Positions 3,033 to 19,614 of a stretch of 64,000 bases of DNA are shown here, piece after piece. Position numbers and translations under genes: made by a program. Positions within the stretch are counted from its first letter, which is position 1, and each line of letters opens with the position of its first letter. Below the pieces are notes generated by a model. It had not been told where the DNA came from. It made no database searches and was given only the letters and a program-made list of their open reading frames with translations. Origin of the DNA: Candidatus Latescibacterota bacterium (GTDB taxonomy: Bacteria; Latescibacterota; UBA2968; UBA8231); NCBI GenBank assembly GCA_965219385.1, contig CBDCNM010000002.1, positions 2,860,305 to 2,924,304 of the forward strand. The letters are read 5' to 3'.

Positions 3033-3057
3033 CCACCCGGGCCCTGCGGATCCTGAG

Positions 3058-4504
3058 CTCGACTTTATCCATTTATGTAGCGTACGAGACGGTGTGTATC
3101 AAGCGGTTGAGTAGGCTTCGAGGGATTTTTATCAGGTCGTGTTGGTTGGGCAGGTTGGAAAAAGCCTGCCAGAGCCGTTGTCGGACCCAGGCCACGGCAT
3201 CGGAAAAGGTGGGTTTTCGTTTGCCATACCAGGCCGTGGCATGGCAGGGGGAGGCGCTTTTGGGGGCCAGCCGATTGGCGATGAGGGCGACCAGACTAAA
3301 CAAGGCCAAGATGACCGGCGTGGTCCGGGCAATGGCCCGCTCATTCCATTGGCGTTGGGTTTCCATGCCCAGATGGGCGCGGGCTTCCTCAAAGGTAGTT
3401 TCTACCGACCAGCGTTGGAGAAAATAGGTCAGCATTTGCCGAGGGGACAGACGCACATCGGTCGAGAGCAAGGCTTGGGGCGCGAAGCGGCCGGCCGGGT
3501 CTCGGATCAGCAGCCAGCGGAGGGGCACGGCGGGCAAGCCAGTGTGATACCACAGCGCCGTTTGGCTGTAGGTTTCCACTGTATAGGGGCCGGCGGCATA
3601 CCACCGGTCCAGGGTGAGGGGGTGCCAAGGGGTAGTCGGATCGTCCAGGTGCTGCTGGAGGGTGGGCTGCCGGGCGCCTTTGCCGCGGGGGCGTCCCCGC
3701 GTGTGCGGCGTGCGGGTTGGTGGTGGGTCATACAGGGCCGCATCCAACCGCAAGCGGGTAATCAGCCCCACGTGGGGCCGAACCGCGTCGAGAAAGGCCA
3801 AGGCGGAGAAGGTGCTATCGGCGACCACGACCAGCCGGCGGGTGGGCAGCCAGCGCGCTACCAGCTTGAGCATAGTCTGCCCCCGTTGCAACAGGGTGAG
3901 GGGGGTGCGCTGGCGCTGAGTATAGTAGCGGGCCGACGGACACAGCACACTCATAAAGGGTAAGGCCCAACTTCGATCCGCCCAAGGGATAGGCGCTACC
4001 AGCATCAACGACAGCCAGCGCAAGCCGCTAGCCTTGACCAGGTGGGGCCCACTCGAGCGGACGGGATCCCGGTAGATGCCTCGGGCCCCAATCTGGGCGC
4101 CCCGGCGCCGCTCGATGGTCTCATCCAGGCCCAGGACCAGGGGCCCGTGGGGGGCAAAGGCGGCCACCAACGCCTGGAGGAGTAGCTTACTGCCGGCCAG
4201 GGGCGACCACACACAGCGGTTGAGGATCCGGTGGTAGGTTTGAAAGGTAGGCTGTTGGCTCAAGCCCAACACCTCCAACACGGCGCTGACCGTGCGTTTA
4301 CCCGGGGCTAACAGCGCCCCGACCAACAGCGTCTGAGCCTGCGGCCAAACGCGGCTCGAAAAAAGGGGGGCAAAGGGCGACAAAATCGTTATTATATCCT
4401 TCGGCAGGGGGCTCATCGGTTTCTCCTGGGCTGTCGATGCTTGGATACCATCAACAGTACGGAGGATACCGGCCTCCTGCCATGCGCGTTTGGATAAAAT
4501 CGAG
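3058..4504 (-). mobile_element. IS701-family-like insertion sequence, copy 1 (1447 bp). Terminal inverted repeats CTCGACTTTATCC / GGATAAAATCGAG; 5-bp TSD CTGAG.
   Basis: Identical in length to the copy at 18168-19614 with a single base difference. Imperfect 13-bp TIRs. CTGAG present at 3053-3057 and 4505-4509. Confidence 0.8.
3073..4416 (-). CDS. DDE transposase, IS701/IS4-superfamily-like (447 aa).
   Basis: Contains the LGLDETIERRRG...IYRD block that corresponds to the DDT...KKG...YCG region of IS701-type transposases. Start MSPLPKDII at 4416 has an AGGAGA RBS. The longer ORF to 4614 is an upstream in-frame extension. Confidence 0.8.
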   Translation of the reverse strand: MSPLPKDIITILSPFAPLFSSRVWPQAQTLLVGALLAPGKRTVSAVLEVLGLSQQPTFQTYHRILNRCVWSPLAGSKLLLQALVAAFAPHGPLVLGLDETIERRRGAQIGARGIYRDPVRSSGPHLVKASGLRWLSLMLVAPIPWADRSWALPFMSVLCPSARYYTQRQRTPLTLLQRGQTMLKLVARWLPTRRLVVVADSTFSALAFLDAVRPHVGLITRLRLDAALYDPPPTRTPHTRGRPRGKGARQPTLQQHLDDPTTPWHPLTLDRWYAAGPYTVETYSQTALWYHTGLPAVPLRWLLIRDPAGRFAPQALLSTDVRLSPRQMLTYFLQRWSVETTFEEARAHLGMETQRQWNERAIARTTPVILALFSLVALIANRLAPKSASPCHATAWYGKRKPTFSDAVAWVRQRLWQAFSNLPNQHDLIKIPRSLLNRLIHTVSYAT

Positions 4505-4650
4505 CTGAGAAGCCGTCTGGAAATCTCCGCTGAGCCCCAAACGTGGCTGCCAGCGCCGTGGGGCACCGCTCCACCTGCTGCCGCGGGCACTCGCAGCCCA
4601 CCACTCTGCCTCATTCACCTGAAAGCAGTAAAGGAGCTGGTCATGAATGT

Positions 4651-5620
4651 TCCACCGGTGGACGGTACTCGAGTAGCCGCCACTGATCTGCGCACGCTGG
4701 TAGGCGATATCTTCAAAGAGGTGCCCATTCCCGAGGAACACGCCCTGCTGATCGCCGAGTTGCTGGTCGACACGGATTTGCGCGGTGTCGTCAGTCACGG
4801 GGTCCTGCAGGTCAACCGCTACGTGCGTTCCTACCAGGAGGGCAAGACCAATACCCACCCCCAGATCCGGGTTTTGCGGGAAGGGCCGGTAACCGCGGCC
4901 CTCAGTGGAGATGGAGGCCTGGGCATGCCCGTCGGGACCCGGTGCATGCAAATGGCCATCGAAAAGGCCCGGGAACTGGGGGTGGGGGTGGCGACCAGTA
5001 CCTACAACGGCCACATCGGCAGCGCGGGCAAGTACGTGCGTATGGCCCTGCGCGAGAACTTGATCGGAATCTGCTTTTCAGGTCGCAGTGCAGCGCCGAG
5101 CTACGATCCCAACAGCACCGTCCGGGGATCAATCCAGGGCAGCCCCCCCCTGGCCTTTGGCATGCCCTCCGGGCCTGACTACCCGCCCTTTCTACTGGAC
5201 TTCTCCAGCGGCTTGTCGATCAGTGAGGAGCACTTTGCAGAGATGCCGGAGATCTTCTTCAAGGCCATTGGCATCTCCCACGTGGGCAATATCATGAGCG
5301 GCACCCTGGGCGGGCAGATGCTGCCGGAGTTTGAGCGCGACAAAATCCACTACAGCAACGCCGATCAGTCCGGGTTTTACCTGGCCCTGAACATCGAATG
5401 CTTTGTGCCCCTCCAGTCCTTCTTGGGCGATATGGACCAGTTGATGGAAAAGACCAGCCGGATGAAGCCCTTCCCCGGGTATGCTGAGGCCGATCTTCCC
5501 GGGGGTCCCGAGTGGAGGAGAGAAAGGGAATTCCTGGACAACGGCATTCCGCTCATGGACCAGGCCGTGGAGTCGCTGGAGGTGCTGGCCGTGGAGTTCG
5601 GGCTCGAGGTGCCGTGGTAA
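4651..5620 (+). CDS. Malate/L-lactate dehydrogenase family (Ldh_2) oxidoreductase.
   Basis: MNVPPVDGTRVAATDLRTLVGDIFKEVPIPEEHALLIAELLVDTDLRGVVSHGV... matches the Ldh_2 family N-terminus. AAGGAG RBS before ATG 4651. The track ORF starts inside the IS. Confidence 0.7.
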
Positions 5621-5639
5621 CTACACCCCCACCCAGGCG

Positions 5640-5779
5640 GCCAGGGCCGTGGCCCACTCGATACTTTGCCTGGAATAATCAGGCGGGAAGGGAACCAGTC
5701 GTAGGTGACCAGCTCGACAAAGCCGGTATAGCCGACTTCTTTGAGGGCGCCAAACACGGCTTCCCAGTCCACGATATCC
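5640..5779 (-). pseudogene. Remnant C-terminal fragment of a sugar phosphate isomerase/epimerase (xylose-isomerase-like TIM barrel).
   Basis: Translation ...DIVDWEAVFGALKEVGYTGFVELVTYDWFP... is the typical C-terminal motif of that family. No N-terminal part exists; the fragment abuts a solo MITE end. Confidence 0.4.
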
Positions 5780-5829
5780 CCAGAGGCACAATCCCTGCAC
5801 GGCCAACCGCCGATTCCGTGAAGTACTGA
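5780..5829 (+). repeat. Solo right-end fragment (~50 bp) of the MITE-like repeat family.
   Basis: ccagaggcacaatccctgcacggccaaccgccgattccgtgaagtactga matches the right ends of the copies at 11501-11604 and 39540-39788. Confidence 0.6.
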
Positions 5830-6141
5830 ATATGTCTGGCGAGGATCTTGATTTTGTCGTACAATTCTCCACCTATTATTCTGGAATGCCATGCTCGAAA
5901 GCATAACCGACATGATAATCGGAGCGGGCGGTACGGTGGGGTACCTGTACGCGTGGAACCGGATCCTGGCGGCCAATAGGGTGGACGAAGAGGCCGGTCC
6001 CGAGGATGCCAGGCGAGCCCGGTGGAGGACGAGGTACTGGCAGGTGTTCTTTTTTGTTTTGCTCACTCCGTATGTACTGCTGTTGTACTATTTGATGGGA
6101 CAGGTGCCTTGAGGTGAGTTTTTGTAAACGAGGATAAAGAG

Positions 6142-7149
6142 ATGGCACCATCCCTTCCCGACGTATTGCCGCTGCGTCCTTATTTCAGGGAAGTGGTCTG
6201 GGGCGGCCGGCGCTTGCAGGAGTTCTACGGCAAGGACCTGCCGGAAGGCAAGTCCATCGGCGAGTCCTTTGAGGTATCCGCCTGCAAAGACCAGGAAAGC
6301 GTGGTGGCCGCCGGACCTCTGGTGGGTCGGAATCTACAGAGCCTGGTCGAAGAATACCAGGGGGAACTGGTAGGCCAGAGGGTTTGGGAACACCACGGCG
6401 GGCTGTTTCCACTGTTGATCAAGCTGATCGACGCCCGGGACGATCTTTCTATTCAAGTACACCCGGACGATGCCTATGCCCGCGAGAAGAGGCCGGGAGC
6501 ACAGGGCAAGATGGAGGCGTGGTACGTGCTGCACTCGGAGAGGGGTCGGATAGTGTACGGCCTGGGAGAGGGGGTGAGCGCCGCCGATCTGGCGGCGGCT
6601 GTGGACGCCGGGCGGGTGGAGGACGTGGTCCGGTCCTTTGAGGTCAAAAGGGGGGATGTGGTATTCTCGCCTCCGGGCACGGTGCACGCTCTGGGTCGGG
6701 GGGTGATGGCATACGAGGTACAGCAGTCCAGCGATCTGGTCTTTCGCCTCTACGACTACAACCGTCCAGGGTTGGACGGAAAGCCGCGGGAGTTGCACAT
6801 CGAAGCGGCTCTGGAGGTCATTCGTTTCGATGAAAGGATGCCGGAGCCGGCCTCCTGGCGGCACTGCCCGGGCGCCCGGGAGGGAGGGGCCACCCTGGTG
6901 GAGTCCGACCACTTCCGGCTGGATCTGCATTGCCCATCCGCCCCCCAGAGCAGGCACCAGACAGGCGAGTCCTTCCTGGCGCTCACCGCGATTCAGGGAG
7001 AGGCGATCATCAGGGGACGCCGGGAGCCCCATCGCTTGAGACCCGGCGCCACGGTCCTGATTCCGGCCCACCGGGAATTTTCAATCCAGCCCACCGGCGA
7101 GGCTGAGCTCGAGTACCTGATCGCGTCTCCATCTTTTCAGCAGGAGTAA
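6142..7149 (+). CDS. manA: Mannose-6-phosphate isomerase, class I (bacterial short type).
   Basis: Motifs VWGG, LSIQVHPDD, KMEAWYVL, GTVHALG, SDLVFRLYDYNR. Confidence 0.75.
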   Translation: MAPSLPDVLPLRPYFREVVWGGRRLQEFYGKDLPEGKSIGESFEVSACKDQESVVAAGPLVGRNLQSLVEEYQGELVGQRVWEHHGGLFPLLIKLIDARDDLSIQVHPDDAYAREKRPGAQGKMEAWYVLHSERGRIVYGLGEGVSAADLAAAVDAGRVEDVVRSFEVKRGDVVFSPPGTVHALGRGVMAYEVQQSSDLVFRLYDYNRPGLDGKPRELHIEAALEVIRFDERMPEPASWRHCPGAREGGATLVESDHFRLDLHCPSAPQSRHQTGESFLALTAIQGEAIIRGRREPHRLRPGATVLIPAHREFSIQPTGEAELEYLIASPSFQQE

Positions 7150-7152
7150 AAC

Positions 7153-8232
7153 ATGCAATTCGTCATCCGGGCAGGCGGTATCGGCACCCGTCTATGGCCC
7201 TATAGTCGCACGGGCCGTCCCAAGCAGTTCCACGCCATGGTGGGCCGGCGCACCATGATTCAAGATGCGGTGGAACGGCTTGGTGCGATTGCGGCTCCAG
7301 AGGATATCTACGTTTCTATCGGTTCCGCCATGGTCAATCTGGTCCTGGAGCAGCTTCCGGCTCTGCCCGAGGCACACCTCATTGTCGAACCGGCCCTGCG
7401 CAATACCGGTCCGGCCGTGGGCCTGGAGTGCGCCCTCCTCGAAGCCCGCTATCCCGGCTGCACCATCGCCAGCCTCGGTTCGGACCACTACATCGGCAAA
7501 CCCGAGGAATTCTGCCGCTTGCTGAGAGTGGCCGAGACCGCCCTGGAGGAACATCCCGACTACCTTTTCACCCTGGGCGTCAAGCCTACGCGGGTGGAGA
7601 CCGGATATGGATACATCCGCCAGGGCGGGATACTGTGGAGGGTCGCGGATGAACCGGTTTATGCGGTGGAGCAGCTCGCGGAAAAACCGGACGAGGAGCG
7701 CGCCCGGGCGTATACCGAGAGCGGCGACTACCTGTGGAACAGCAATGTATTCGTGTGGAAGGCGGCCGCCGTGCTGGATCTCTTCGCTCGCTTTGAACCC
7801 GAGATGCACGAAAGGCTGATGCGCGTCAAGGCGGCGGTGAGCACCTCCGAGGAAGAAGAGGTCATCGCCCGCGAATACCCCGAGTTGAAGGCCGTTGCCA
7901 TAGACAATGCCATCATCGAGCGGGCCGGGCAGGTGGCTACCCTGGAGGCGGATATCGACTGGGGGGATATCGGCAGTTGGGCGGCCCTGACCGATGTGCT
8001 GCCCGCGGACACCGAGGGCAATCTCTTGCCCGGCGAGGTGCTGGCCCTGGATGCTCGCGGGGTCACGGCCTACGGTCCGGAGGAGAAGCTGATCGTCCTG
8101 ATCGGGGTGGAGGATCTGGTGGTGGTAGACACGCCGGATGCGCTGCTGGTGTGCCGCAAGGATCAGGCGCAACGGGTCAAGGAGGTGCTGGAGCGGTTGC
8201 AGGGGGAAGAGAAATACCGAGGGTACACGTAG
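7153..8232 (+). CDS. Mannose-1-phosphate guanylyltransferase (nucleotidyltransferase plus left-handed helix C-terminal region).
   Basis: MQFVIRAGGIGTRLWPYSR... N-terminal G-rich NTP-binding loop; about 360 aa, typical of ManC/GMP. Confidence 0.75.
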   Translation: MQFVIRAGGIGTRLWPYSRTGRPKQFHAMVGRRTMIQDAVERLGAIAAPEDIYVSIGSAMVNLVLEQLPALPEAHLIVEPALRNTGPAVGLECALLEARYPGCTIASLGSDHYIGKPEEFCRLLRVAETALEEHPDYLFTLGVKPTRVETGYGYIRQGGILWRVADEPVYAVEQLAEKPDEERARAYTESGDYLWNSNVFVWKAAAVLDLFARFEPEMHERLMRVKAAVSTSEEEEVIAREYPELKAVAIDNAIIERAGQVATLEADIDWGDIGSWAALTDVLPADTEGNLLPGEVLALDARGVTAYGPEEKLIVLIGVEDLVVVDTPDALLVCRKDQAQRVKEVLERLQGEEKYRGYT

Positions 8233-8415
8233 AGCCTTCTTAATACTACATTTGTCAATTGGCGGATAACGTGCTCATTGGTCCACTATTTTTGCCCATT
8301 TTGGGCGCAATCTTTCGGCCAATACCGATCAGGATTTGTGCTGTAAGATCCGAAGAAACAGCGCATTACTCCAAACGGATCGCTTTCAAGCCTTTCGGTA
8401 ATCTGCTGAAAAATA

Positions 8416-8453
8416 GGGACTTATGGAACCAGCACTCCTAATCGACAAAGTAA
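8416..8453 (+). repeat. Left copy of a ~35-bp direct repeat flanking the PhyH-aminotransferase-aspartate DH-like unit.
   Basis: gggacTTATGGAACCAGCACTccTAATCGAcaaAGTAA versus ggggatTTATGGAACCAGCACTgtTAATCGAAGTAA at 11401-11436. A 16-nt exact core plus further matches. Confidence 0.5.
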
Positions 8454-8523
8454 TATTAAGGATAATGCCATGAAACCGTTGAGCCGTCGCCAGATCGCCG
8501 AGTGGGAGTGAGAGGAGCTACCC

Positions 8524-9321
8524 ATGCCAACACCTATGGAGGAATTTTTCTTTGACCTGAGGGGGTACGCGATCCTCCCGGGAGCACTTGCTGCCGATCA
8601 CGTGCACGCCATCAACGCATGGGTCGACGCCTTGCCGCCGTTGCAGGCGGGCGACTGGCTCGGGAATATCGAGGTCCACACCTACGGCGGAATTGACGGG
8701 ATGAACCTCCAGAACATCATCGAGGGCGGCGAAATCTTCGAACGTCTGATCGACCATCCTGCCTGGATCGGCCTGGTGCGCCACTACCTGGGTATAAACG
8801 AGCCGTTTATCAACGAGGATTTTCTCAACCTGCGCGGCAAGGGCGGGTACATCGGCATCCACTCCGGCGGCTGGAAGAGCGACGGGCGGGTCAGGAGCGG
8901 GGTGCAGAACGGGAATTGGTGTGTCCAGTACATGTCGTTGATCGTGGCCCTGAACGATATCGGTCCGGGGGACGGTGCGACCGTGGCCATTCCCGCGAGC
9001 CACAAATCGTCCTTTCAGCACCCCCAGCAGGTGGAAGGGGTCGGGATCACCAAAAGGCCGGGCCAGGAGGTGGAAGGCACGGTGGAGCTTTATTTGCGGG
9101 CGGGCGATGCGGTGTTGTTCAACGACATGCTGATTCACGGCTCGGCGGATCGAACCAATCCCGGGTATCGCCGCACCCTGGTATTCCGCTACCTTCCCAG
9201 TCTGTACGCCCATCGCTGGCGCACGGTGCCGTCCGACGAGTTGCTGGCGCGCCTTACCCCCGAGCGCAGAAAAATCGTACAACCAGTCGAGCCGCACCGA
9301 CGGCCCGTGGCGAAAATCTAA
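8524..9321 (+). CDS. Phytanoyl-CoA dioxygenase (PhyH) family Fe(II)/2-oxoglutarate oxygenase.
   Basis: Size and overall pattern of PhyH-family proteins. GAGGAG RBS before ATG 8524. Confidence 0.6.
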   Translation: MPTPMEEFFFDLRGYAILPGALAADHVHAINAWVDALPPLQAGDWLGNIEVHTYGGIDGMNLQNIIEGGEIFERLIDHPAWIGLVRHYLGINEPFINEDFLNLRGKGGYIGIHSGGWKSDGRVRSGVQNGNWCVQYMSLIVALNDIGPGDGATVAIPASHKSSFQHPQQVEGVGITKRPGQEVEGTVELYLRAGDAVLFNDMLIHGSADRTNPGYRRTLVFRYLPSLYAHRWRTVPSDELLARLTPERRKIVQPVEPHRRPVAKI

Positions 9322-9356
9322 GACGGCTTCTTAAAATTCCTGGTGCGCCCCGTTGC

Positions 9357-10514
9357 TCACTTCTGTCTCTTCTCCCGGATCATGGCGCAAATCCGGTGCA
9401 GGCCCTCGCGGATGTTTTCCGCGGGTGAGGCTATGGAGATGCGGATGTGGTCGCTGCACATCTTGCCGAAGGTATTGCCCGGCGCCACGGCGACCTTTTT
9501 CTCCTCGAGCAGCTGGAGGGCAAAATCGCGTGAGTCCATGGCGGTGACGGAGATGTCTACCAGCAGGTAGAAGGCCCCGCCCGGCGAGTAGCGGTACAGG
9601 TCGTATTCGCGCAGCACCTCCAGGGCCACGTCGCGTCGGGTTTTGTATTCATCCCGCATGTCCCGAACCGCGTTCTGGGGACCCTCCAGAGCATCGGCCG
9701 CGGCCAACTGGGCAAAGCCGACCCCGCACGAGACAAAAGGTTCCTGCAGCTTGGTGGCCAGGTCCACGTAGGCGGCGCTGGCCCGGGTAAGGCCGACGCG
9801 GAACCCGGTCATGGCGTAGGCCTTGGACATGCCGCTGACGATCAAGGCGCGTTCGTCGGTGTCGCCGGCCAGGGCGCTGACGTGGTCCTGGTCGAAGACG
9901 ATTTCTCCGTAAATCTCGTCCGAGAGCACGTAGAGATCGTATCTTCTGGCAAAGTCCATCAGGTTGTGCATCACGTCCGCGTCGTAGACCTGGCCGGTGG
10001 GATTGGAGGGGGTGCAGATCAACAGCAGCTTGGTCCTGGGGGTGACCAGGCTGTCCAGGTTGTCCAGGTCGGGCAGGAACTGGTTTTCCGGGCGCAGGTC
10101 GTAAAAGACCGGGGTGGCGTGCAGCAGGGAGGTGGCCATGTGGTAGTTGGGCCAGCCCGGATCCGGCAGCAGGACTTCGTCGCCCGGCTCCAGCAGGGCC
10201 ATGAGACAGGTGGCCACGCTCATGACCGCTCCGGGGGTGACGAGGATGTTTTCGGCGCGGGTTTCCACTCCGGTCCGGCGTTCAAAGTAGCGGGCCGCCG
10301 CGGCCCGCAATTCCTTGACGCCGGCATTGGCCACGTACTTGGTATGGCCCTGGCGCACGTAGCGACAAGTGGCCTCGACGATGGGGGCCGGAGTGGGGAA
10401 GTCGGGTTGGCCGACCTCCAGGTGGATCACCCCTTCGAGCTCGGCCGACAGAGCCATGATTTCGCGGATGCCGGAACGGGGAATCTGCATGGGTACGCGG
10501 GCAAAAGGTTTCAT
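9357..10514 (-). CDS. Class I/II pyridoxal-phosphate aminotransferase (aspartate/aromatic type).
   Basis: SGMSKAYAMTGFRVG lysine motif. Canonical fold length (385 aa). Confidence 0.8.
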   Translation of the reverse strand: MKPFARVPMQIPRSGIREIMALSAELEGVIHLEVGQPDFPTPAPIVEATCRYVRQGHTKYVANAGVKELRAAAARYFERRTGVETRAENILVTPGAVMSVATCLMALLEPGDEVLLPDPGWPNYHMATSLLHATPVFYDLRPENQFLPDLDNLDSLVTPRTKLLLICTPSNPTGQVYDADVMHNLMDFARRYDLYVLSDEIYGEIVFDQDHVSALAGDTDERALIVSGMSKAYAMTGFRVGLTRASAAYVDLATKLQEPFVSCGVGFAQLAAADALEGPQNAVRDMRDEYKTRRDVALEVLREYDLYRYSPGGAFYLLVDISVTAMDSRDFALQLLEEKKVAVAPGNTFGKMCSDHIRISIASPAENIREGLHRICAMIREKRQK

Positions 10515-10522
10515 CGGCCCTC

Positions 10523-11701: not shown

Positions 11702-12661
11702 TCAGTCGGCTTTTTTTGTTTGGTCCCGGTTCCCAGGGCTGGATACTTTGCACACCCAGATGCTGATTTCGTAGAGCACCAGAAGAGGCAGGGCCATCAT
11801 GATCTGGGAGATGGGGTCAGGTGGGGTGAAGACAGCGGCCAGGACAAAGACGGCGACCAGGGCATAGCGCCGGACGCGGCGCAGGTAATCTGCGGTCAGC
11901 ACGCCGATGCGGGAGAGGAAGAAGGTCAGCACCGGCATCTCGAAGACCAGGCCAAACCCCAGGATGAGCCGGAGCACAAAGCTGACGTACTCACCCAGGG
12001 CCCAGCGCGCGGCGGTGTTCGGCGGCTCGAGAGCCAGAAAAAAGTGCAGACCCAAAGGCAAGACGATCGAATAGGCGACCAGGGCGCCCACCGCAAAACA
12101 CAGCACACTCAGACCCACAATCGGTAACATCAGGCGCTTCTCCCGGGACAGCAGGCCCGGGGCCACAAACTGCCAGAGCTGATAGAAGATCACGGGCAGG
12201 GCCAGGACCAGACCGCCCAGCAGAGCGATCTGCAAGGGGACGAAGAAGGTCGTCATCACCTTGAGCGCCTGGAGCTGGCGCCCCTCGGGCAGAGATTCAG
12301 TCTGGATCGGAGCGCTCTTTTCGACCTCTCCGATCAAGGCCCCGACCGACCTCTGGATAGCCCCCAAAACCCCCGAAGAGTGGGTGGTATCCAGACGCCG
12401 GACCGCGTCTTCATAGGGGACGGTCAGTAGCTTCACCAGCTCGTCGGAGTAAATATAGCAGATCGCGGCGCCGACGAGGACGGCGGCCAGGGATTTGAGG
12501 AGGCGCCAGCGCAATTCTTCGAGGTGGTCGAGAAAAGACATGCGGGTCCCCTCTTCTTCCAGGGCCTCTTCCGGGGATGAGGAGGTTTGCTCTTCCCGGC
12601 GCGGTTCCGGCGGCAGGATCTGGGGATCTGCGGGTGGGTTCTGTGAGGATTCGTCTGTCAT
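11702..12661 (-). CDS. tatC: Twin-arginine translocase subunit TatC (with a ~40-aa acidic/Pro-rich N-terminal extension).
   Basis: MSFLDHLEELRWRLLKSL... is the canonical TatC N-terminus; multiple TM segments. ATG at 12661 directly follows the lnt stop. Confidence 0.8.
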   Translation of the reverse strand: MTDESSQNPPADPQILPPEPRREEQTSSSPEEALEEEGTRMSFLDHLEELRWRLLKSLAAVLVGAAICYIYSDELVKLLTVPYEDAVRRLDTTHSSGVLGAIQRSVGALIGEVEKSAPIQTESLPEGRQLQALKVMTTFFVPLQIALLGGLVLALPVIFYQLWQFVAPGLLSREKRLMLPIVGLSVLCFAVGALVAYSIVLPLGLHFFLALEPPNTAARWALGEYVSFVLRLILGFGLVFEMPVLTFFLSRIGVLTADYLRRVRRYALVAVFVLAAVFTPPDPISQIMMALPLLVLYEISIWVCKVSSPGNRDQTKKAD

Positions 12662-14268
12662 GGGCTCAACTTTTTGGTTCGGGCGCCCCAAAGAGCAACC
12701 CCGGTCAGACACAGGGCGGCCAGCAGGGCGACCCGGGCGAAGATATCGCCGTGGCGGGTGTAGAAGGTGCGGTCCGGCCCGACCGGCAACTCGTGGACGC
12801 GCACCGCCGGCTCGAAGATATCCGTGGCCTGAAAGGTGCGTCCAAAGGGATCTATGAATACGGAAATTCCGCTGGTGGCGCAACGGGCTATGGAGATGCG
12901 GTTTTCGACCGCGCGCAGGATGGCCAGCTGGGCATGCTGATACGGACCGGCGGTCTCGCCGAACCAGGAATCGTTGGTGATATTGACCAGTAATTGCGCT
13001 CCGGTTTCGACGCTGTGCCGCACCAGATCCGGAAAGACGGATTCAAAGCATATCAGCGCGGCAAAATCCGCCTGTGGATGCGCGAAGAGGGTGTGCTCCG
13101 TGCCCGGGGCGAATTCGGCTGGTCCCAGATCGCCGGTGAGGGCCTTCCAGTCGATGTCGCGCAACAGCGGGATGCTGTCTCGGTAAGGGGTGCGTTCGCC
13201 AAAGGGAACCAGATGCATTTTGGCATAGGATTGCGGTTCCGGGTGATGGGGCCTGAAGAAGAAGGCGGAATTGTAGGGTTCGCCCCGGGCCTGGTCGTAG
13301 TCCGAAGCGCCGGTGAGGAGGGGGACCTGCAGGTCTTCCACCAGTTGCTCGACTCGACTCCTGCAGGCAGGGCGCAAGCGCAAGTAACAGGGTAGGGCGG
13401 TCTCGGGCCAGACCAGGAGGGCCGGTTCCTGGTCCACGGCCCGGCGCGAAAGCTCTTCGAGGGTGGTGAAGCTGCGTTCAAGCCCCCTGGCCCCCCACTT
13501 TTCTCGCAGGCTCAGGTTGGGCTGAACCACGGCTACGCGAATGCTTGCGCCGCTGTCCGCCGTGGCTGGAATGGTCGCGCGGCCGTAGAGATAAGGAACC
13601 AGCAGTCCCAGGCCCAGCAAGCCCAAGGCGGCCAGCCGCTGCCGCTGCTCAGAGGCCGTCAGCACCCATAGAGCCAGTACATTCAGCAACACAATCCAGC
13701 ACGAAATGCCGTACACGCCGGTAAATGCCGCGTATTGAATCAGCGCCGGGAAAGCGGCCTGGCTATGTCCCAGCAGCAGCCATGGGAAACCCAGTTCGCC
13801 CAGGGACAGCAGGTATTCCTGGGCGGTCCACAGGATGGGTGCGGCCCCCACGGCCCCCTGCCCCCACTGGCCTTGAAGCAGGTTCTGGACTCCGGCGAAG
13901 ACGCCGATAAAAAGGCCCAGATAGGCCGCCATCAGAAAAGCGCCGCCTACCACGGCCGGCCCGCCACCCTGAGTGTGCGCCACCCAGTATAAACTCGATA
14001 GGTTGAAAACAAAGCCCGCGAGCCAGCCGCGGTGGAACCCCTCCTTGAAGGAGCCTCCCGGCAAGGCCAGCAACAAAGGGATCAGCGCCACGCAGGTCCA
14101 GCCGCCGTGGAAGAGAAAGGCCAGTGGATGGTGGGGGTGGCAGGGAAAGGCAAGCGCCAGCAGGGCGCCCGAAATAAGGGGGAGAGTCCAGTGATACAGT
14201 CTGGTCTGAACCGAAGACAGAGGGGGCATGACGCGGGGGAATATAGTCCAGGCCGGGGGGCCGGGCAA
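12658..14268 (-). CDS. lnt: Apolipoprotein N-acyltransferase (Lnt). N-terminal polytopic membrane region plus CN-hydrolase domain.
   Basis: Hydrophobic N-terminal half, then RVAVVQPN...WPE...LICFE nitrilase-superfamily signature. Exact start uncertain. Confidence 0.8.
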   Translation of the reverse strand: MPGPPAWTIFPRVMPPLSSVQTRLYHWTLPLISGALLALAFPCHPHHPLAFLFHGGWTCVALIPLLLALPGGSFKEGFHRGWLAGFVFNLSSLYWVAHTQGGGPAVVGGAFLMAAYLGLFIGVFAGVQNLLQGQWGQGAVGAAPILWTAQEYLLSLGELGFPWLLLGHSQAAFPALIQYAAFTGVYGISCWIVLLNVLALWVLTASEQRQRLAALGLLGLGLLVPYLYGRATIPATADSGASIRVAVVQPNLSLREKWGARGLERSFTTLEELSRRAVDQEPALLVWPETALPCYLRLRPACRSRVEQLVEDLQVPLLTGASDYDQARGEPYNSAFFFRPHHPEPQSYAKMHLVPFGERTPYRDSIPLLRDIDWKALTGDLGPAEFAPGTEHTLFAHPQADFAALICFESVFPDLVRHSVETGAQLLVNITNDSWFGETAGPYQHAQLAILRAVENRISIARCATSGISVFIDPFGRTFQATDIFEPAVRVHELPVGPDRTFYTRHGDIFARVALLAALCLTGVALWGARTKKLSP

Positions 14269-14421
14269 GAAGGGGTGGTACGGAATATGCTGTCAATGGG
14301 GCGATGCTGCGGCGTAAGACAGCTTCTAAGGGAGAGATTATACAGGAGTGCGTCTGTGCTGTTCGGCACGAAAAGGTGACAGGTATGTTTCGCTTACTAC
14401 ACACTCGGAGGTTATGTCGTT

Positions 14422-15162
14422 GTGCATAGGCACTTAAAATTGAAAGGAGACGGCCGCCCGCGAATCGCCGGACCTATTTTGCGTGAACAAATCTCCCCCA
14501 TGGAGGGGATCGCTCCAATAGACTTGCCGCGTGAGCGCCTGGCACGCCATGGAGTCGAGGCCTTGAAGGATTTCGAGTTGCTGGCTATCGTGCTGGGGAC
14601 CGGGTACCGGGGTCGCAATGTCCTGGAGGTTGCACAGGCTATTCTCAAGGACCACCCCAAAGAGGAGTTGATGGAGATGGGCCTGGAACGCTTGAGCCAC
14701 CTCAAGGGCCTGGGGAAGGCCAAGGCCAGCGTACTGGTGGCGGCCTTCGAACTGACCCGGCGTGGCCTGCAGCAGGGAATGGGTGTTTTGCCGACCATCT
14801 CCACTCCGGCAGAGGCCGTGGCCTTGCTGACCGAGATCAAGGACCAGCGCAAGGAGTACTTTCTCTGTCTGTATCTGAATGCGCGCAATCAGGTGATCCA
14901 CAAAGAGGTGATTTCGATCGGCAGCCTGTCGGCGTCGATCGTGCATCCGCGCGAGGTCTTTCAGGTAGCTGTACATCATTCTGCCGCCGGTATCATTCTG
15001 GCGCACAACCACCCTTCGGGGGATGTATCGCCGAGCAAGGACGATATTGAATTGAGCGGCCGTCTGGTAAAGGCCGGAGAGATAATGGGCATTGAGGTGC
15101 TGGACCACATCATCATCAGCACAGTGGAATTCCTGAGTTTGAAGGAACGGGGTCTGATGTAA
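14422..15162 (+). CDS. radC: RadC-family JAB/MPN-domain protein (UPF0758).
   Basis: HNHPSGDVSPSKDD JAMM motif; helix-hairpin-helix N-terminal part. GTG start at 14422; an alternative ATG at 14500. Confidence 0.75.
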   Translation: MHRHLKLKGDGRPRIAGPILREQISPMEGIAPIDLPRERLARHGVEALKDFELLAIVLGTGYRGRNVLEVAQAILKDHPKEELMEMGLERLSHLKGLGKAKASVLVAAFELTRRGLQQGMGVLPTISTPAEAVALLTEIKDQRKEYFLCLYLNARNQVIHKEVISIGSLSASIVHPREVFQVAVHHSAAGIILAHNHPSGDVSPSKDDIELSGRLVKAGEIMGIEVLDHIIISTVEFLSLKERGLM

Positions 15163-15322
15163 AAGTAAAGGGGGGCGGCGGATTTTACAGATTGATAAAA
15201 TTGTATGTTGAGCTTGATTATTGTCTGAGAAGAAGTATATTTGAGGGGTAAGTGATGCTCGCTCTTCCAATTTGTTGGTCGTGGTCGACCATGGCCAATG
15301 GTTAGATGTGTGGGGGACGTTT

Positions 15323-15997
15323 ATGGAACTTGATAATGAAAATCTTAAAAATGAAGATTTGATTCCGGTTCGGATCCTCGGCATCTATCCTTATGGAGAC
15401 CCAAACGATCCCAGACAGCTCCTCGAGGGTTTTCTGGTGTTTCTGAAGGGGCGGGAGGACAAGGTCGTACCCATTTCTATCGGACGTTTTGAGGGGCAGG
15501 CCCTGGCCCTGGCCCTGCGCAAGGTGCCTTCGTCCAGACCTTTGCCTTACGATCTGCTCAAGGACTTGCTGGAAAAGATGAACGGCGAAGTAAAGCAGCT
15601 TGTGATTCACACCTTGAAGAAGAGGGTCTTCCACGCCTATTTACTCATACAGGCTCAGGAGCGGGAGTTGATGCTGGATTGTCGTCCCAGCGATGGCATG
15701 ATCCTGGCGACCCTGACGGGGGTGTCCATCTACATAAGTCCACAAATCGTGGAAGAAGCTGGTCGGGAGCTGAACGGGCTGCTCGAAAATTCCGATTTAT
15801 CCGAAGAGTCCCTGCTGCTCGAAAGCGATGATGACCCGCTGGCCGGGTTGCGAGAAGCCGAGCCCCAGGAAGAGGAGGAGATGAGCGAACTGGACAAGCT
15901 CAAGGCCCAGCTCAACCAGCTCGTCGCCGAAGAAGCCTACGAAGAGGCGGCCAAGGTCAGGGATTTGATCAGCCGGATGGTGAGGCAAAGTACTTAG
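15323..15997 (+). CDS. Bifunctional nuclease (DUF151) domain protein with C-terminal UVR motif.
   Basis: LIPVRILGI...HTLKKRVFHAYL BFN core. C-terminal ELDKLKAQLNQLVAEEAYEEAAKVRDLI UvrB/C-type motif. Start ATG 15323 chosen over the track's upstream extension. Confidence 0.7.
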   Translation: MELDNENLKNEDLIPVRILGIYPYGDPNDPRQLLEGFLVFLKGREDKVVPISIGRFEGQALALALRKVPSSRPLPYDLLKDLLEKMNGEVKQLVIHTLKKRVFHAYLLIQAQERELMLDCRPSDGMILATLTGVSIYISPQIVEEAGRELNGLLENSDLSEESLLLESDDDPLAGLREAEPQEEEEMSELDKLKAQLNQLVAEEAYEEAAKVRDLISRMVRQST

Positions 15998-16924
15998 AAG
16001 CCGTTTTAAAACCCCTGTGGTTATGCGAGTCGTTTGAGCAACAGATGGGTCATCGCAATGTAAATGAGGGCTTCGCTATTCCGTGTCAAGACTTCATAAT
16101 CCTTCGAGAGACGGCGAAAATTCAACAACCAAGCAAAGGTGCGTTCAACCACCCATCGCCATTTCATCACCTGAAATCCCGGGCCTTCTCGTTCGACCAC
16201 TTCCAAGTCAATTTTGTGGGTTCGCTTCAAACGGGCAACCCACTCTTTCAAGGTCTCACCCGAGTAGCCGCCGTCGCCCCACAGCTTGCCAAGCCGCGTC
16301 CAGCCAGCGGCCCAATAGCGTTTGAGTAACTCCATCAGCCCGTCCCGATCCGCCAAGTCGCCTGCCGATACAAACGCAGAGAGGATCAACCCCAGCGTAT
16401 CGACAAGGAGATGGCGCTTGCGGCCATTGACCTTCTTGCCAGCATCGTACCCTTTTACTTTACCTTGTGTTGCGGTCTTGATGCTTTGAGCGTCTATACT
16501 GCCTGCTGAAGCGGCGGGCTTGCGACCTTGACGACGTCGCTCCCTTCTTGAGAGGGCCTGATGGATCTGCTGGAAGAGGCCTTCTTCGCTCCAGGTGTTG
16601 AAATACCTCTACACGGTTTGCCAGCATCCATACTCTTTGGGCCGCATCCGCCATGGGCATCCCGTCTTGGTCAGATACACAATGCCGTTGAACACTTGGC
16701 GCAGATTGACGGGTGGGCGACCCGGACCGCCCGGATGCCATTTGCGTTTGGGCCGCAGCGTCAGGAGAAGTTGCCATTGCGCTTCGATCAAATCTGTCGG
16801 ATATTGCCTTTGCGTATTCATCCTTATCCTTTCGTTTCAGGTGGTTTTGGACAACCTGAATTTGGATAGATGAATACGCACTTTCCACTTTTTTCTCTAC
16901 TCCTCTACCTTTTTAAAACAGCTT
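15998..16924 (-). mobile_element. IS5-family (IS1031/IS427-group-like) element, 927 bp. TIR AAGC(C/T)GTTTTAAAA, flanked by CTTAG.
   Basis: aagccgttttaaaa at 15998-16011 and ttttaaaacagctt at 16911-16924. CTTAG at 15993-15997 (includes the BFN gene stop codon TAG) and at 16925-16929. Confidence 0.7.
16021..16821 (-). pseudogene. IS5-family transposase (267 codons) interrupted by one in-frame amber codon.
   Basis: A single frame encodes MNTQRQYPTDLIEAQWQ...GCPWRMRPKEYGCWQTV-TAG-RYFNTWSEEGLFQQIHQAL...GYDAGKKVNGRKRHLLVDTLGLILSAFV...FAWLLNFRRLSKDYE. The TAG at 16609-16611 sits where family members have Tyr (WQTVYRYF). No frameshift is needed. Confidence 0.7.
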
Positions 16925-16952
16925 CTTAGGCCGTTTTTGGTCGCAACGCGAT

Positions 16953-16990
16953 GAGCCCCTTCGAAGTAACTCGAAGGGGCTCATTTTTTA
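16953..16990 (+). terminator. Rho-independent terminator (12-bp perfect stem GAGCCCCTTCGA / TCGAAGGGGCTC, loop AGTAAC, then ATTTTTTA).
   Basis: Seen directly in sequence. It lies immediately downstream of the IS5-like insertion and was probably the original terminator of the BFN gene (and/or the convergent sodC). Confidence 0.7.
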
Positions 16991-17000
16991 TGGGCTGGAG

Positions 17001-18167
17001 CTAAGTACACGACAGTAAGCTAAGTGGTGGTACGGCCCTGATTTAGGTTTATTTGTAATCGGTCCAACTACCAATAAAGTGGCTAAACCCAGGAGCCGCA
17101 CCATGCTTATTCATACGCTCAAAAAAGCACTTACGCAAGGGCGCGTCCCCCTTACGCGCCACCGTATCGAACTCGTCAGTCGGTTCGTGTGTGCGCTGAT
17201 GCAAGTGCGTTCGGTCAATATGAAAAAACTCGCGTGTAGTCTGTCGGGGCTGGCTAACGTTGAAAGTCAGTATCGTCGCCTTCAGCGTTTTTTTAGCAGC
17301 GCGGTCTCCCCGGCGGTGTTTACCGAGTTGATCGTCTCCAAGTTGGTTGGCCCCGGCCAGCCCCAGGTGTTAGTCATGGATCGTACCCATTGGAAGTTGG
17401 GTCGCACCGATCTGAATGTGTTGTGTGTAGGCTTGGTTGATCAAGGCGGGTCTATTCCGTTGGTCTATCAGTCGTTGCAAAAGCCGGGCAATTCCAACAC
17501 CGACGAACGCAAGGCGCTGCGGACCAAGGTGTGGTCCTACCTCGATCCGGGCGCGTGCTGTCTGGTCGCCGAGCGCGAATTTATCGGTCGAGACGGGTTT
17601 GCTTTTCGGTTGAAGCAGCCGGTCGATTTTGTCCTCCGCCGGCGCGGTAATACATCGCTTACCCTCGACGATGGTCGGCGGCGCTATGCGGCCACCTTCA
17701 ATGCACGCATGCCCCGAGGCACCACCCGATACGATCCACACACGACACTTGATGACGGGCTGAGCTTGAATGTGGTGGGTCACCGTCCCACCCACGGCCA
17801 ACGCATCCTGCGGATCACCCATCGAACCGACCTCCAACAGGTGCTTGATTTATATGGCCAGCGCGGGGCTATCGAGACGGCATTTGCTTGTTTGAAATCG
17901 AGGGGCTTTACCCTCGAAGATACCCATTTGACCCCTCCCCAACGCTTGCACTTGCTGCTGGGATTACTGGCGTGGACGCTCCTGGGGGCACTACTGGTAG
18001 GACCGCAGCTACATCAAAGAAAACCCATCCTCCTAAAAAAACATGGACGAAGAGCCATAAGCCTCTTTCGAAAAGGATTAGACCCACTCACACAGATCAT
18101 ACACCAAGCACGAGACCAACCTAAAATCACCCGACAATATCAACCCATTTTACTGTCGTGTACTTAG
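17001..18167 (+). mobile_element. IS4-family-like element, 1167 bp. Perfect 18-bp TIRs CTAAGTACACGACAGTAA / TTACTGTCGTGTACTTAG; inferred 9-bp TSD GGGCTGGAG.
   Basis: TIRs at 17001-17018 and 18150-18167. GGGCTGGAG at 16992-17000 and again at 21148-21156, beyond the later nested insertions. Confidence 0.7.
17103..18167 (+). CDS. IS4-family DDE transposase (354 aa). Its stop codon TAG is the last 3 nt of the right TIR.
   Basis: MLIHTLKKALTQGRVPL...LVMDRTHWKLGRTDLNVL...LVDQGGSIPL, typical of IS4-type (DDE_Tnp_1) transposases. AGGAG RBS before ATG 17103. Confidence 0.65.
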   Translation: MLIHTLKKALTQGRVPLTRHRIELVSRFVCALMQVRSVNMKKLACSLSGLANVESQYRRLQRFFSSAVSPAVFTELIVSKLVGPGQPQVLVMDRTHWKLGRTDLNVLCVGLVDQGGSIPLVYQSLQKPGNSNTDERKALRTKVWSYLDPGACCLVAEREFIGRDGFAFRLKQPVDFVLRRRGNTSLTLDDGRRRYAATFNARMPRGTTRYDPHTTLDDGLSLNVVGHRPTHGQRILRITHRTDLQQVLDLYGQRGAIETAFACLKSRGFTLEDTHLTPPQRLHLLLGLLAWTLLGALLVGPQLHQRKPILLKKHGRRAISLFRKGLDPLTQIIHQARDQPKITRQYQPILLSCT

Positions 18168-19614
18168 CTCGACTTTATCCATTTATGTAGCGTACGAGAC
18201 GGTGTGTATCAAGCGGTTGAGTAGGCTTCGAGGGATTTTTATCAGGTCGTGTTGGTTGGGCAGGTTGGAAAAAGCCTGCCAGAGCCGTTGTCGGACCCAG
18301 GCCACGGCATCGGAAAAGGTGGGTTTTCGTTTGCCATACCAGGCCGTGGCATGGCAGGGGGAGGCGCTTTTGGGGGCCAGCCGATTGGCGATGAGGGCGA
18401 CCAGACTAAACAAGGCCAAGATGACCGGCGTGGTCCGGGCAATGGCCCGCTCATTCCATTGGCGTTGGGTTTCCATGCCCAGATGGGCGCGGGCTTCCTC
18501 AAAGGTAGTTTCTACCGACCAGCGTTGGAGAAAATAGGTCAGCATTTGCCGAGGGGACAGACGCACATCGGTCGAGAGCAAGGCTTGGGGCGCGAAGCGG
18601 CCGGCCGGGTCTCGGATCAGCAGCCAGCGGAGGGGCACGGCGGGCAAGCCAGTGTGATACCACAGCGCCGTTTGGCTGTAGGTTTCCACTGTATAGGGGC
18701 CGGCGGCATACCACCGGTCCAGGGTGAGGGGGTGCCAAGGGGTAGTCGGATCGTTCAGGTGCTGCTGGAGGGTGGGCTGCCGGGCGCCTTTGCCGCGGGG
18801 GCGTCCCCGCGTGTGCGGCGTGCGGGTTGGTGGTGGGTCATACAGGGCCGCATCCAACCGCAAGCGGGTAATCAGCCCCACGTGGGGCCGAACCGCGTCG
18901 AGAAAGGCCAAGGCGGAGAAGGTGCTATCGGCGACCACGACCAGCCGGCGGGTGGGCAGCCAGCGCGCTACCAGCTTGAGCATAGTCTGCCCCCGTTGCA
19001 ACAGGGTGAGGGGGGTGCGCTGGCGCTGAGTATAGTAGCGGGCCGACGGACACAGCACACTCATAAAGGGTAAGGCCCAACTTCGATCCGCCCAAGGGAT
19101 AGGCGCTACCAGCATCAACGACAGCCAGCGCAAGCCGCTAGCCTTGACCAGGTGGGGCCCACTCGAGCGGACGGGATCCCGGTAGATGCCTCGGGCCCCA
19201 ATCTGGGCGCCCCGGCGCCGCTCGATGGTCTCATCCAGGCCCAGGACCAGGGGCCCGTGGGGGGCAAAGGCGGCCACCAACGCCTGGAGGAGTAGCTTAC
19301 TGCCGGCCAGGGGCGACCACACACAGCGGTTGAGGATCCGGTGGTAGGTTTGAAAGGTAGGCTGTTGGCTCAAGCCCAACACCTCCAACACGGCGCTGAC
19401 CGTGCGTTTACCCGGGGCTAACAGCGCCCCGACCAACAGCGTCTGAGCCTGCGGCCAAACGCGGCTCGAAAAAAGGGGGGCAAAGGGCGACAAAATCGTT
19501 ATTATATCCTTCGGCAGGGGGCTCATCGGTTTCTCCTGGGCTGTCGATGCTTGGATACCATCAACAGTACGGAGGATACCGGCCTCCTGCCATGCGCGTT
19601 TGGATAAAATCGAG
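18168..19614 (-). mobile_element. IS701-family-like insertion sequence, copy 2 (1447 bp), inserted at CTTAG at the tip of the IS4-like right TIR.
   Basis: Identical to 3058-4504 except for one substitution (c at 3667 versus t at 18777). CTTAG at 18163-18167 and 19615-19619. Confidence 0.85.
18183..19526 (-). CDS. DDE transposase, IS701/IS4-superfamily-like (447 aa); a D-to-N variant of copy 1.
   Basis: Protein identical to the 3073-4416 product apart from HLDDPTT becoming HLNDPTT. Confidence 0.85.
   Translation of the reverse strand: MSPLPKDIITILSPFAPLFSSRVWPQAQTLLVGALLAPGKRTVSAVLEVLGLSQQPTFQTYHRILNRCVWSPLAGSKLLLQALVAAFAPHGPLVLGLDETIERRRGAQIGARGIYRDPVRSSGPHLVKASGLRWLSLMLVAPIPWADRSWALPFMSVLCPSARYYTQRQRTPLTLLQRGQTMLKLVARWLPTRRLVVVADSTFSALAFLDAVRPHVGLITRLRLDAALYDPPPTRTPHTRGRPRGKGARQPTLQQHLNDPTTPWHPLTLDRWYAAGPYTVETYSQTALWYHTGLPAVPLRWLLIRDPAGRFAPQALLSTDVRLSPRQMLTYFLQRWSVETTFEEARAHLGMETQRQWNERAIARTTPVILALFSLVALIANRLAPKSASPCHATAWYGKRKPTFSDAVAWVRQRLWQAFSNLPNQHDLIKIPRSLLNRLIHTVSYAT

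Follow-up and report, generated by a model that had tools for sequence, protein, structure and literature searches.

Members of the IS701 family are 1400-1550 bp long, and almost all of them duplicate exactly 4 bp of their target on insertion (De Palmenaer et al., 2008; PMC2266710); a later summary of the family, as far as it is cited in PMC8024623, allows 4 or 5 bp. The window (the whole 64-kb stretch of DNA analysed here, from an uncultured bacterium whose genome is crowded with insertion sequences) contains two copies of an element that resembles this family in its single DDE transposase, its length, its short terminal inverted repeats and its short duplication, about half a helical turn, at a conserved target. 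It departs from the 2008 description in duplicating 5 bp at CTNAG instead of 4 bp. This length falls within the 4-or-5-bp range, the classical figure being 4 bp. The two copies and their flanks are as follows:

3058-4504, minus strand: copy 1 of the IS701-family element, 1447 bp, with 14-bp inverted repeats CTCGACTTTATCCA and CTCGATTTTATCCA
3073-4416, minus strand: copy 1 transposase, 447 aa, D258 allele, with the DDE triad D98, D200 and E339
3053-3057: left flank of copy 1, CTGAG, 5-bp duplication
4505-4509: right flank of copy 1, CTGAG, 5-bp duplication
18168-19614, minus strand: copy 2 of the IS701-family element, 1447 bp, an insertion specific to the window lineage
18183-19526, minus strand: copy 2 transposase, 447 aa, N258 allele
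18163-18167: left flank of copy 2, CTTAG, which is also the right tip of IS-B and holds the IS-B stop codon
19615-19619: right flank of copy 2, CTTAG, ending in TTAG, the four bases that form the left target duplication of IS-C

The copies lie 13,663 bp apart in direct orientation, with both transposase ORFs on the minus strand. Their sole difference, C at 3645 against T at 18755, makes residue 258, which is not catalytic, D in one copy and N in the other. An earlier sequence-only reading had described the equal length of 1447 bp, the single D-versus-N base difference, the direct orientation and the CTNAG repeats (CTGAG on both sides of copy 1, CTTAG on both sides of copy 2), and sequence comparison agrees on each point. 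Its assignment to IS701 also holds, as the transposase scores 308.5 bits against NCBIfam NF049999 (IS701; cut-off 170). The Pfam DDE_5 match has an E-value of 2.7e-28, and the triad D98, D200 and E339, carried by both window copies, is invariant across 14 aligned relatives. Each element is 1447 bp long with one ORF, and its 14-bp inverted repeats pair at 13 of 14 positions. The tip CTCGAYTTTATCCA occurs in the window at these four IS ends only, apart from one chance match with two mismatches, where 0.47 matches would be expected by chance. Outside the source lineage's own assemblies, the best relatives in genome, metagenome and plasmid searches share at most 76% amino acid identity. Relatives at 45-76% identity keep the inverted-repeat tip and are mostly about 1446-1460 bp long, with a few longer. 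Judged by these comparisons, and relative to the genome, metagenome and plasmid collections searched, the pair are copies of an apparently unnamed element of the IS701 family. Its transposition would follow the chemistry of that family, with one 447-aa DDE transposase moving a 1447-bp element and duplicating the 5 bp of CTNAG.

Two sister assemblies provide a history for the two insertions. Copy 1 is found at the same site in both (L003, L157, L158), and its insertion is therefore older than the split between the strains. Copy 2 is missing from both (L041/L157 and L158), where the exact empty site GTGTA-CTTAG-CAGGCC is preserved within flanks that share 99.9% identity with the window. Relative to this empty site, the window contains exactly one extra CTTAG and 1447 bp, with no other disruption. 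On this alignment, copy 2 is an insertion of the window lineage with a true 5-bp duplication, and the exact empty site fixes the duplication at 5 bp of CTNAG for this IS701 subgroup. The bracketed host genes in L157 and L158 follow the same order as in the window. A further element, IS-D, is present in one sister assembly and absent from the other.

The count of differences between copies is a poor guide to their age. At the copy 1 site, the three assemblies carry three different alleles, made up of variants at positions where copies in other parts of the genome also differ. Gene conversion or assembly consensus effects blur the count. Copy 2 is recent, but copy 1 predates the strain split, and the one-base difference, from which very recent transposition had been proposed, does not itself date the events. 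One position does mark the window lineage, as copy 1 carries a C at 4399 and copy 2 the equivalent base, while the same position is T in both sister alleles of copy 1 and in 13/13 copies of sister genome ERZ25072670 (4.2 Mb, 99.9% identical). With at least 13 full copies in that genome, the window pair is nothing special, being two of many. The sequence-only reading correctly saw two copies but not this wider multiplicity, and it missed the nest of four elements to which copy 2 belongs:

15997-16925, minus strand: IS-A, IS5 family, decayed, 929 bp, with TTA inside CTTAG on its flanks
16021-16389 and 16609-16821: IS-A transposase ORF fragments
16992-17000: IS-B 9-bp target duplication GGGCTGGAG, left
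17001-18167, plus strand: IS-B, IS4 family, 1167 bp, bounded by perfect 18-bp inverted repeats CTAAGTACACGACAGTAA
17079-18167: IS-B transposase, 362 aa (NF033591, 160.8 bits, cut-off 152)
19620-21143, plus strand: IS-C, IS1182/IS5-like, 1524 bp, bounded by inverted repeats CAGGCCGTTGAAAAA and a TTAG duplication and encoding a DUF772 transposase of 472 aa
21148-21156: IS-B 9-bp target duplication GGGCTGGAG, right, parted from IS-B by copy 2 and IS-C

Copy 2 is placed at the junction between IS-B (IS4-family) and IS-C (IS1182/IS5-like). The 9-bp repeat GGGCTGGAG stands on either side of the block made up of IS-B, copy 2 and IS-C, the TTAG duplication of IS-C falls inside the tip of IS-B, and the CTTAG of copy 2 is the IS-B/IS-C junction itself. 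The elements have thus been inserted into each other's ends, and their order can be reconstructed: IS-B was followed by IS-C, and IS-C by copy 2.

Host genes separate this nest from copy 1, and the features of the interval and its left edge are as follows:

4509-4545, plus strand: IS5-type inverted-repeat-like remnant (GAAGCCGTCTGGAAATCTCC...), abutting copy 1
4643-15997: bracketed host genes, namely Ldh_2, mannose-6-P isomerase-like, GDP-mannose pyrophosphorylase-like, PhyH, aminotransferase, aspartate dehydrogenase-like, tatC, lnt, radC and a bifunctional-nuclease/UVR gene

The identities of tatC and lnt given by the sequence-only reading are confirmed by scores that exceed the curated cut-offs of TIGR00945 and TIGR00546, respectively. 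By analogy with other bacteria they would be essential, and recombination between copies 1 and 2 could carry a fitness cost. The M81 peptidase stop codon does lie 25 bp before copy 1. The Ldh_2 start, previously placed 146 bp after copy 1, is instead 138 bp away, at the ATG at 4643 called in a sister assembly. The suggestion that copy 1 supplies an outward promoter gained no support from a sigma-70 consensus scan of positions 2900-4800, although this consensus may not be of the host's promoter type. Rfam searches at gathering thresholds returned no RNA matches in the window, and no tRNAs were found there. In L004 and L006, intact IS5-like elements carry the tip GAAGCCGTCTGAAAACTC, to which the remnant beside copy 1 corresponds; the remnant's repeat GAAGCCGTCTGGAAATCTCC recurs at 61409-61457 and in part at 22007-22052.

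Since two intact copies in direct orientation bracket a block of genes, and their outer ends form a valid inverted-repeat pair, both copies and the intervening 13.7 kb could be taken for a composite transposon, acquired as a whole or able to transpose as a whole. This origin is scarcely credible, because the outer flanks are unlike (CTGAG to the left of copy 1, CTTAG to the right of copy 2), a separate duplication accompanies each copy, and both sister assemblies have copy 1 and the complete interval at this position yet lack copy 2. The interval also contains housekeeping genes and has a GC content within the range of the flanking DNA. The two insertions are therefore independent, as had been proposed; future mobilisation of the bracketed structure is possible in principle, but does not account for its origin. 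That copy 2, or the whole pair, is a misplaced or duplicated repeat is a concern raised by the window arrangement being read from one assembly (look-ups of its M81 peptidase and Ldh_2 proteins and of the IS-B cluster returned nothing from the collection searched), and by the sister contigs being metagenome assemblies, in which assemblers fail at repeats. Such an artefact is highly improbable given the exact junctions, at which the window exceeds the empty site by a CTTAG and 1447 bp and nothing else, and given that copy 2 carries both the lineage-private base and a second allele that sets it apart from copy 1. The sister assemblies also appear from their contig names to be long-read, and long reads would span a 1.45-kb repeat.

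Presence and absence are not polarised without a strain tree, and the clean single CTTAG in both sisters would also be left if copy 2 were ancestral and had been lost from them by precise excision. Exact restoration of the target after excision is, however, generally rare among DDE insertion sequences. The sisters differ from each other, as IS-D is present in only one of them, yet copy 2 is absent from both, and copy 2 shares the window-private base with copy 1; ancestral presence followed by excision is accordingly very unlikely. With the observed anatomy, family membership, copy number, empty site and order of insertion, the pair are very probably two of many copies of an active IS701-family insertion sequence, copy 1 having inserted before the strains diverged and copy 2 later in the window lineage, within a nest that target regeneration would have built. 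Copy 1 would have entered a CTGAG that lies beside the IS5-type remnant and separates the M81 peptidase gene from Ldh_2, before the divergence of the sampled strains. Copy 2 probably came later and in the window lineage only, its target being the one CTTAG at which the right tip of IS-B met the left tip of IS-C. The donor would have held the window-private allele; copy 1, at a distance of 13.7 kb, is a candidate. The flagged pair is an ordinary multi-copy insertion sequence and not a special structure, and the window and its two sister assemblies together offer a natural before-and-after view of a single transposition, down to the exact empty site. In annotating this lineage, a one-base difference between copies is not a reliable clock, nor are matching 5-mers a reliable signature.

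The nest coincides with a scarcity of targets. The 64-kb window contains 85 CTNAG sites, against 227 expected, and only 12 sites of the form CTWAG (W = A or T), nine of which are at the tips of mobile elements. In the sister genome, 11/13 copies directly adjoin a further insertion sequence or the tip of an IS5-like element, on our reading of the flanks. IS5-family elements of the IS-A/IS-D type share the palindromic target core with the IS701-family element but differ in belonging to the NF033580 transposase family, in their length of about 930 bp and in their 3-bp duplication (TNA within CTNAG). Because the core is common to both, elements of each kind would regenerate and reuse the other's junctions. 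The pile-up in the nest is thus probably due to the scarcity of CTWAG in a GC-rich genome combined with the recreation of the target at both new junctions, whereby later insertions of IS701 and IS5-like elements would come to lie beside earlier ones. Purifying selection against insertions elsewhere, as distinct from target choice, could account for part of the preference for IS tips. A scarce palindromic target that is renewed by each insertion would funnel several IS families into few junctions, and would explain ‘IS graveyards’ without any special recognition.

In long-read metagenome genomes, the 5-mers flanking many copies of the element are not identical. Both copies in the window have matched 5-mers, as the sequence-only reading noted, but as a signature of insertion they are undependable in this lineage: only 4/13 copies in the sister genome are matched, so that a simple insert-and-duplicate account does not cover all copies of the lineage. 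Among metagenome flank pairs, 22/77 are identical. One copy (L029) interrupts a gene whose intact orthologue, representing the empty site, has CTAAG, yet its flanks are CTTAT and ATAAG. At L006 the right flank is ATAAG, where the adjoining IS5-like element's own duplication predicts CTCAG, and non-target flanks also occur at L004 and L010. Within a genome, rare 5-mers recur on one side only, and at one orthologous site two assemblies differ only in its two 5-mers. Intact duplications were found in 2/21 IS5-like neighbours and 8/9 controls, a comparison that is confounded, as the adjacent cases are mostly on short-read soil contigs that are possibly chimeric across repeats.

It is tentatively suggested, as a rather unlikely reading, that in the lineage of this element found in IS-rich uncultured bacteria the flanking 5-mers often do not derive from the target, and arise instead by donor-flank carry-over or gene conversion. 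In the former case, staggered excision in the manner of piggyBac would take donor bases along; in the latter, conversion among the many copies would extend through the shared CTNAG into the flanks. If either were true, the ‘target site duplications’ of this lineage would belong to the repeat and could be inherited or converted along with it, and the anomaly, if it is real biology, would bear on how this transposase family cuts donor DNA. Several other accounts of the flanks were rejected. Blunt insertion of a 1452-bp unit was reasoned to fail on several copies, as was a 4-bp duplication around an element extended by one base. The alleles at L132 and L135 do not represent two daughters of one insertion, since the TTA duplication of the neighbouring IS5-like element misfits the CTAAG that this would require.

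Unnamed relatives on finished plasmids of isolates provide a close comparison. These were found on pNOS3756_1 of Nostoc sp. NIES-3756, on pREB3 of Acaryochloris marina, in Roseomonas mucosa and Microvirga ossetica, and on plasmids of Rhizobium and Sinorhizobium. They share the tip CTCGAC... and a CTNAG-type duplication of 5 bp, are mostly of similar length, reaching about 1.7 kb, and often adjoin IS5-family elements, but their protein identity to the window element is only 45-57%. Unlike many copies in metagenome-derived genomes, all 16 plasmid copies for which both ends were found (16/16) have identical flanking 5-mers. Matched 5-mers among relatives of the element include the non-palindromic CCTAG, GTAAT, TTCAG, CTTAC, CTAAT, ATTAG and TTGAG, and those used against longer element boundaries (GTAAT, CTTAC, CTAAT, TTCAG, ATTAG and TTGAG) exclude an element extending 2 bp further into CTNAG at each end with a 1- or 3-bp duplication. 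Donor-flap carry-over as a general mechanism fitted the metagenome data, but these finished copies are canonical, and it is retained only as the improbable, lineage-specific reading given above.

Literature searches turned up no relevant work on a CTNAG target of IS701 or on a connection between IS701 and piggyBac. The eukaryotic piggyBac element has a fixed short palindromic target, and after excision it keeps bases of the donor flank. Such retention would explain 5-mers foreign to the target, and the likeness, offered as an analogy only, concerns target and mechanism. The matched flanks of all 16 isolate copies argue against a piggyBac-like mechanism as the norm of the family.

Two copies of an IS701-family element, copy 1 and copy 2, lie in the window as direct repeats with a spacing of 13,663 bp:

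3058-4504, copy 1, 1447 bp; intact ORF of 447 aa at 3073-4416, minus strand
18168-19614, copy 2, 1447 bp; intact ORF of 447 aa at 18183-19526, minus strand

The sequence-only reading had correctly described two 1447-bp direct copies one base apart (D versus N), each with its own CTNAG flanks. The sole mismatch is C at 3645 versus T at 18755 and changes residue 258 of the transposase from D to N, while the 5-bp flanks on both sides are CTGAG for copy 1 and CTTAG for copy 2. The elements end in 14-bp imperfect inverted repeats, CTCGACTTTATCCA and CTCGATTTTATCCA, a motif present in the window only at the four element ends, plus one chance match with two mismatches. In an alignment with 12 relatives (46-73% identity), D98, D200 and E339 are invariant and are present in both copies. 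Since position 258 is variable among these relatives, with D in the nearest ones, the D/N difference is not catalytic.

The history of the pair was read from two metagenome-derived sister assemblies, ERZ25072670 and ERZ25067264. In both, copy 1 sits at the window's site between the same CTGAG repeats (in ERZ25067264, on a 5.73-Mb contig), and is therefore older than the split between these strains. Neither has copy 2; there, the neighbouring element's right tip directly joins the next element (...TTTTACTGTCGTGTA CTTAG CAGGCCGTTGAAAAAGG...), and the window differs solely by an additional 1447 bp and a second CTTAG. The sisters show a textbook empty site of copy 2, whose 5-bp duplication is a true one. 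The copy-1 locus has a different allele in each of the three assemblies, composed of the same variable positions that separate copies elsewhere in the genome.

Copy-1 alleles at three variable window positions
Window: 3645 C, 4077 T, 4399 C
ERZ25072670: 3645 T, 4077 T, 4399 T
ERZ25067264: 3645 C, 4077 G, 4399 T

These alleles suggest that copies have undergone gene conversion, or that the assembly consensus has affected them, and because they mix positions that vary genome-wide, the one-base difference between the window copies is no clock. The C at 4399, and its equivalent in copy 2, is shared by both window copies and found in none of 13 sister copies, suggesting that the donor of copy 2 came from the window's own lineage and was possibly copy 1. 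A reading of the pair as an assembly artefact is argued against by the exact junctions and the allele pattern. The pair itself is nothing special: one old and one recent insertion chance to be 13.7 kb apart.

Copy 2 forms part of a nest of four mobile elements, missed in the earlier reading, between the convergent genes for a bifunctional nuclease/UVR protein (end 15997) and sodC (21168-21713):

15997-16925, IS-A, a decayed IS5-family element; its flanks are TTA within CTTAG
16951-16984, terminator-like hairpin, followed by a T-run
17001-18167, IS-B, an IS4-family element (NF033591) with perfect 18-bp inverted repeats starting CTAAG
18168-19614, copy 2, the IS701-family element
19620-21143, IS-C, an IS1182/IS5-like element with a DUF772 transposase and a TTAG duplication

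The 9-bp sequence GGGCTGGAG lies directly left of IS-B (16992-17000) and directly right of IS-C (21148-21156), so IS-B arrived first, with a 9-bp duplication. IS-C then entered the TTAG of the IS-B tip, and copy 2 the resulting junction CTTAG. The transposase ORF of IS-B takes its stop codon from the TAG in the element's terminal CTTAG (18165-18167). That of IS-C continues beyond the element and is terminated by the TAG in the adjacent TTAG duplication (21145-21147), its stop codon thus being supplied by the target. In one sister (L041/L157), IS-B is itself interrupted, at the equivalent of 18121-18123, by IS-D, a 905-bp IS5-like element flanked by a TAA duplication. This site, 43 bp from that of copy 2, is empty in the window and in the third assembly; the lineages have thus acquired independent recent insertions in the same nest. 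The other sister (L158) gives a split BLAST alignment against 19681-19734 inside IS-C, which indicates a duplication difference of ~54 bp near its left end.

Both tatC and lnt lie between the copies, as had been claimed, and match equivalog models above cut-off. Recombination between the direct copies would delete both genes, whose essentiality in this host is presumed by analogy; paralogues may exist elsewhere in the genome. The claim that the pair did not arrive as a composite transposon also holds, given that its two outer flanks are not the same and that both sisters carry the interval but lack copy 2. The start of Ldh_2 had been placed 146 bp past copy 1; the sister-assembly gene call puts it at 138 bp (ATG at 4643). 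An outward promoter from copy 1 into this gene has no support but is not refuted either: scanning 2900-4800 with a sigma-70 consensus gave no promoter-like site, and that consensus may not be the host's.

Targets for the element are scarce in the window, with 85 CTNAG sites against 227 expected from base composition (2.7-fold under-representation). The A/T-centred forms dominate the element's flanks, and CTWAG (W = A or T) occurs only 12 times in the 64 kb. Nine of the 12 coincide with the tip of a mobile element or of a remnant of one; CTTAG is found only at insertion-sequence junctions (4/4). Codon usage, a DdeI-like restriction system or selection against insertion targets could account for the shortage. 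Each insertion of the IS701-family element duplicates CTNAG, and each IS5-like insertion TNA, the bordering C and G coming from the latter's own ends; every insertion would therefore recreate the target at both junctions. From this anatomy we infer that target regeneration produces the pile-up, to which selection against insertions elsewhere probably also contributes. On our reading of their flanks and of the genes beside them, 11/13 copies in ERZ25072670 adjoin either a different insertion sequence or the tip of an IS5-type inverted repeat. Copy 1 itself adjoins an IS5-type inverted-repeat remnant (4509-4545, GAAGCCGTCTGGAAAT...), with relatives at 61409-61457, partly at 22007-22052, and in the right flank of locus L002. 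Together they make up a family of short intergenic repeats of the form GAAGCCKTCT..AA.TTCCCGGTGTGCCCCGAGCG. Since their initial 18 bp are similar to the tip of the IS5-like inverted repeats, they are probably solo inverted repeats or miniature elements; two IS701-family copies sit exactly at tips of such repeats. Other intergenic repeats (5773-5836, 11548-11611, 31048-31342 and 39543-39761; 42-70 nt, 86-95% identity) share the core ...CCGCACGGCC...GTGAAGTACTGA, and two are direct repeats inside the interval; no Rfam match was found for them. On pSymB of Sinorhizobium medicae (CP140907.1; L156), two copies of a relative stand head to tail, separated solely by a shared CTGAG (...GTCGAG CTGAG CTCGAC...). 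Here one copy inserted into the other's duplication, the same target-regeneration pile-up in a cultured isolate.

Identical flanking 5-mers occur at only 4/13 copies in ERZ25072670 and 20/33 in the first genome set. Mismatches are frequent in long-read metagenome genomes, as seen among L001-L006, L131-L140 (ERZ25072670, ERZ25067264), L010, L012 and L029 (OZ244790). Recombination between loci cannot explain the flanks of L029, L010, L006 and L004. The copy at L029 interrupts a 569-aa ORF between CTTAT and ATAAG; an uninterrupted orthologue from a different sample shows that the target was CTAAG, and 11 further homologues read Y-L-S/R-A at this position. At L010, within an LRR-protein gene, the left-flank T gives Tyr where orthologues have Asp, and the flanks of L006 and L004 conflict with the 3-bp duplication of the adjoining IS5-like element. 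The odd 5-mers recur within a genome and are side-specific in genome-derived sets (CTTAT left, ATAAG right); outside these sets the sides are only rarely exchanged, with ATAAG on the left in two short-read contigs and CTTAT on the right of one isolate copy. At one orthologous site, two assemblies differ in the two 5-mers only. Donor-flank carry-over was initially favoured with support from short-read soil contigs, where 22/77 flank pairs are identical, although such contigs may be chimeric across repeats. It was set back by finished isolate plasmids, in which each of the 16 copies whose two ends were identified carries matching 5-mers, and each of the four bases appears at the central position; within the family, canonical duplication is therefore the rule. 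Only population-derived genomes rich in insertion sequences show the anomaly. Our tentative explanation is gene conversion between the many copies, in tracts that extend across the shared CTNAG. The frequent T next to the tip is explained by neither gene conversion nor donor-flank carry-over. The main gains are the exact empty site of copy 2 and the reconstruction of the nest; for this lineage, single-base differences and matching 5-mers are a poor guide to age or independence.

The transposase matches Pfam DDE_5 and scores 308 bits against the NCBIfam IS701-family model NF049999 (cut-off 170). A 4.2-Mb contig of ENA analysis ERZ25072670 encodes identical proteins. Over the 7344 bp of overlap with the window it shows 8 differences (~99.9% identity), and it carries at least 13 full copies with three protein variants. 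Relatives with 54-76% identity occur in MAGs labelled Latescibacterota, Entotheonella and Blastocatellia, and in Massilia; those with 45-57% are on finished plasmids of Nostoc, Acaryochloris, Roseomonas, Microvirga, Azospirillum, Rhizobium and Sinorhizobium. Every one of these relatives retains the CTCGAC... tip, and most are of similar length, with some plasmid copies reaching ~1.7 kb. The host is uncultured; a housekeeping aminotransferase in the interval shares 86% identity with a protein of a Gemmatimonadetes-labelled MAG and 76% with a Latescibacteria-labelled one. The element is a new, unnamed IS701-family member present in many copies, a real but ordinary finding. Its size, single ORF and short inverted repeats agree with the published description of the family, which gives a 4-bp duplication in most members (PMC2266710); a later summary, as cited in PMC8024623, allows 4 or 5 bp.
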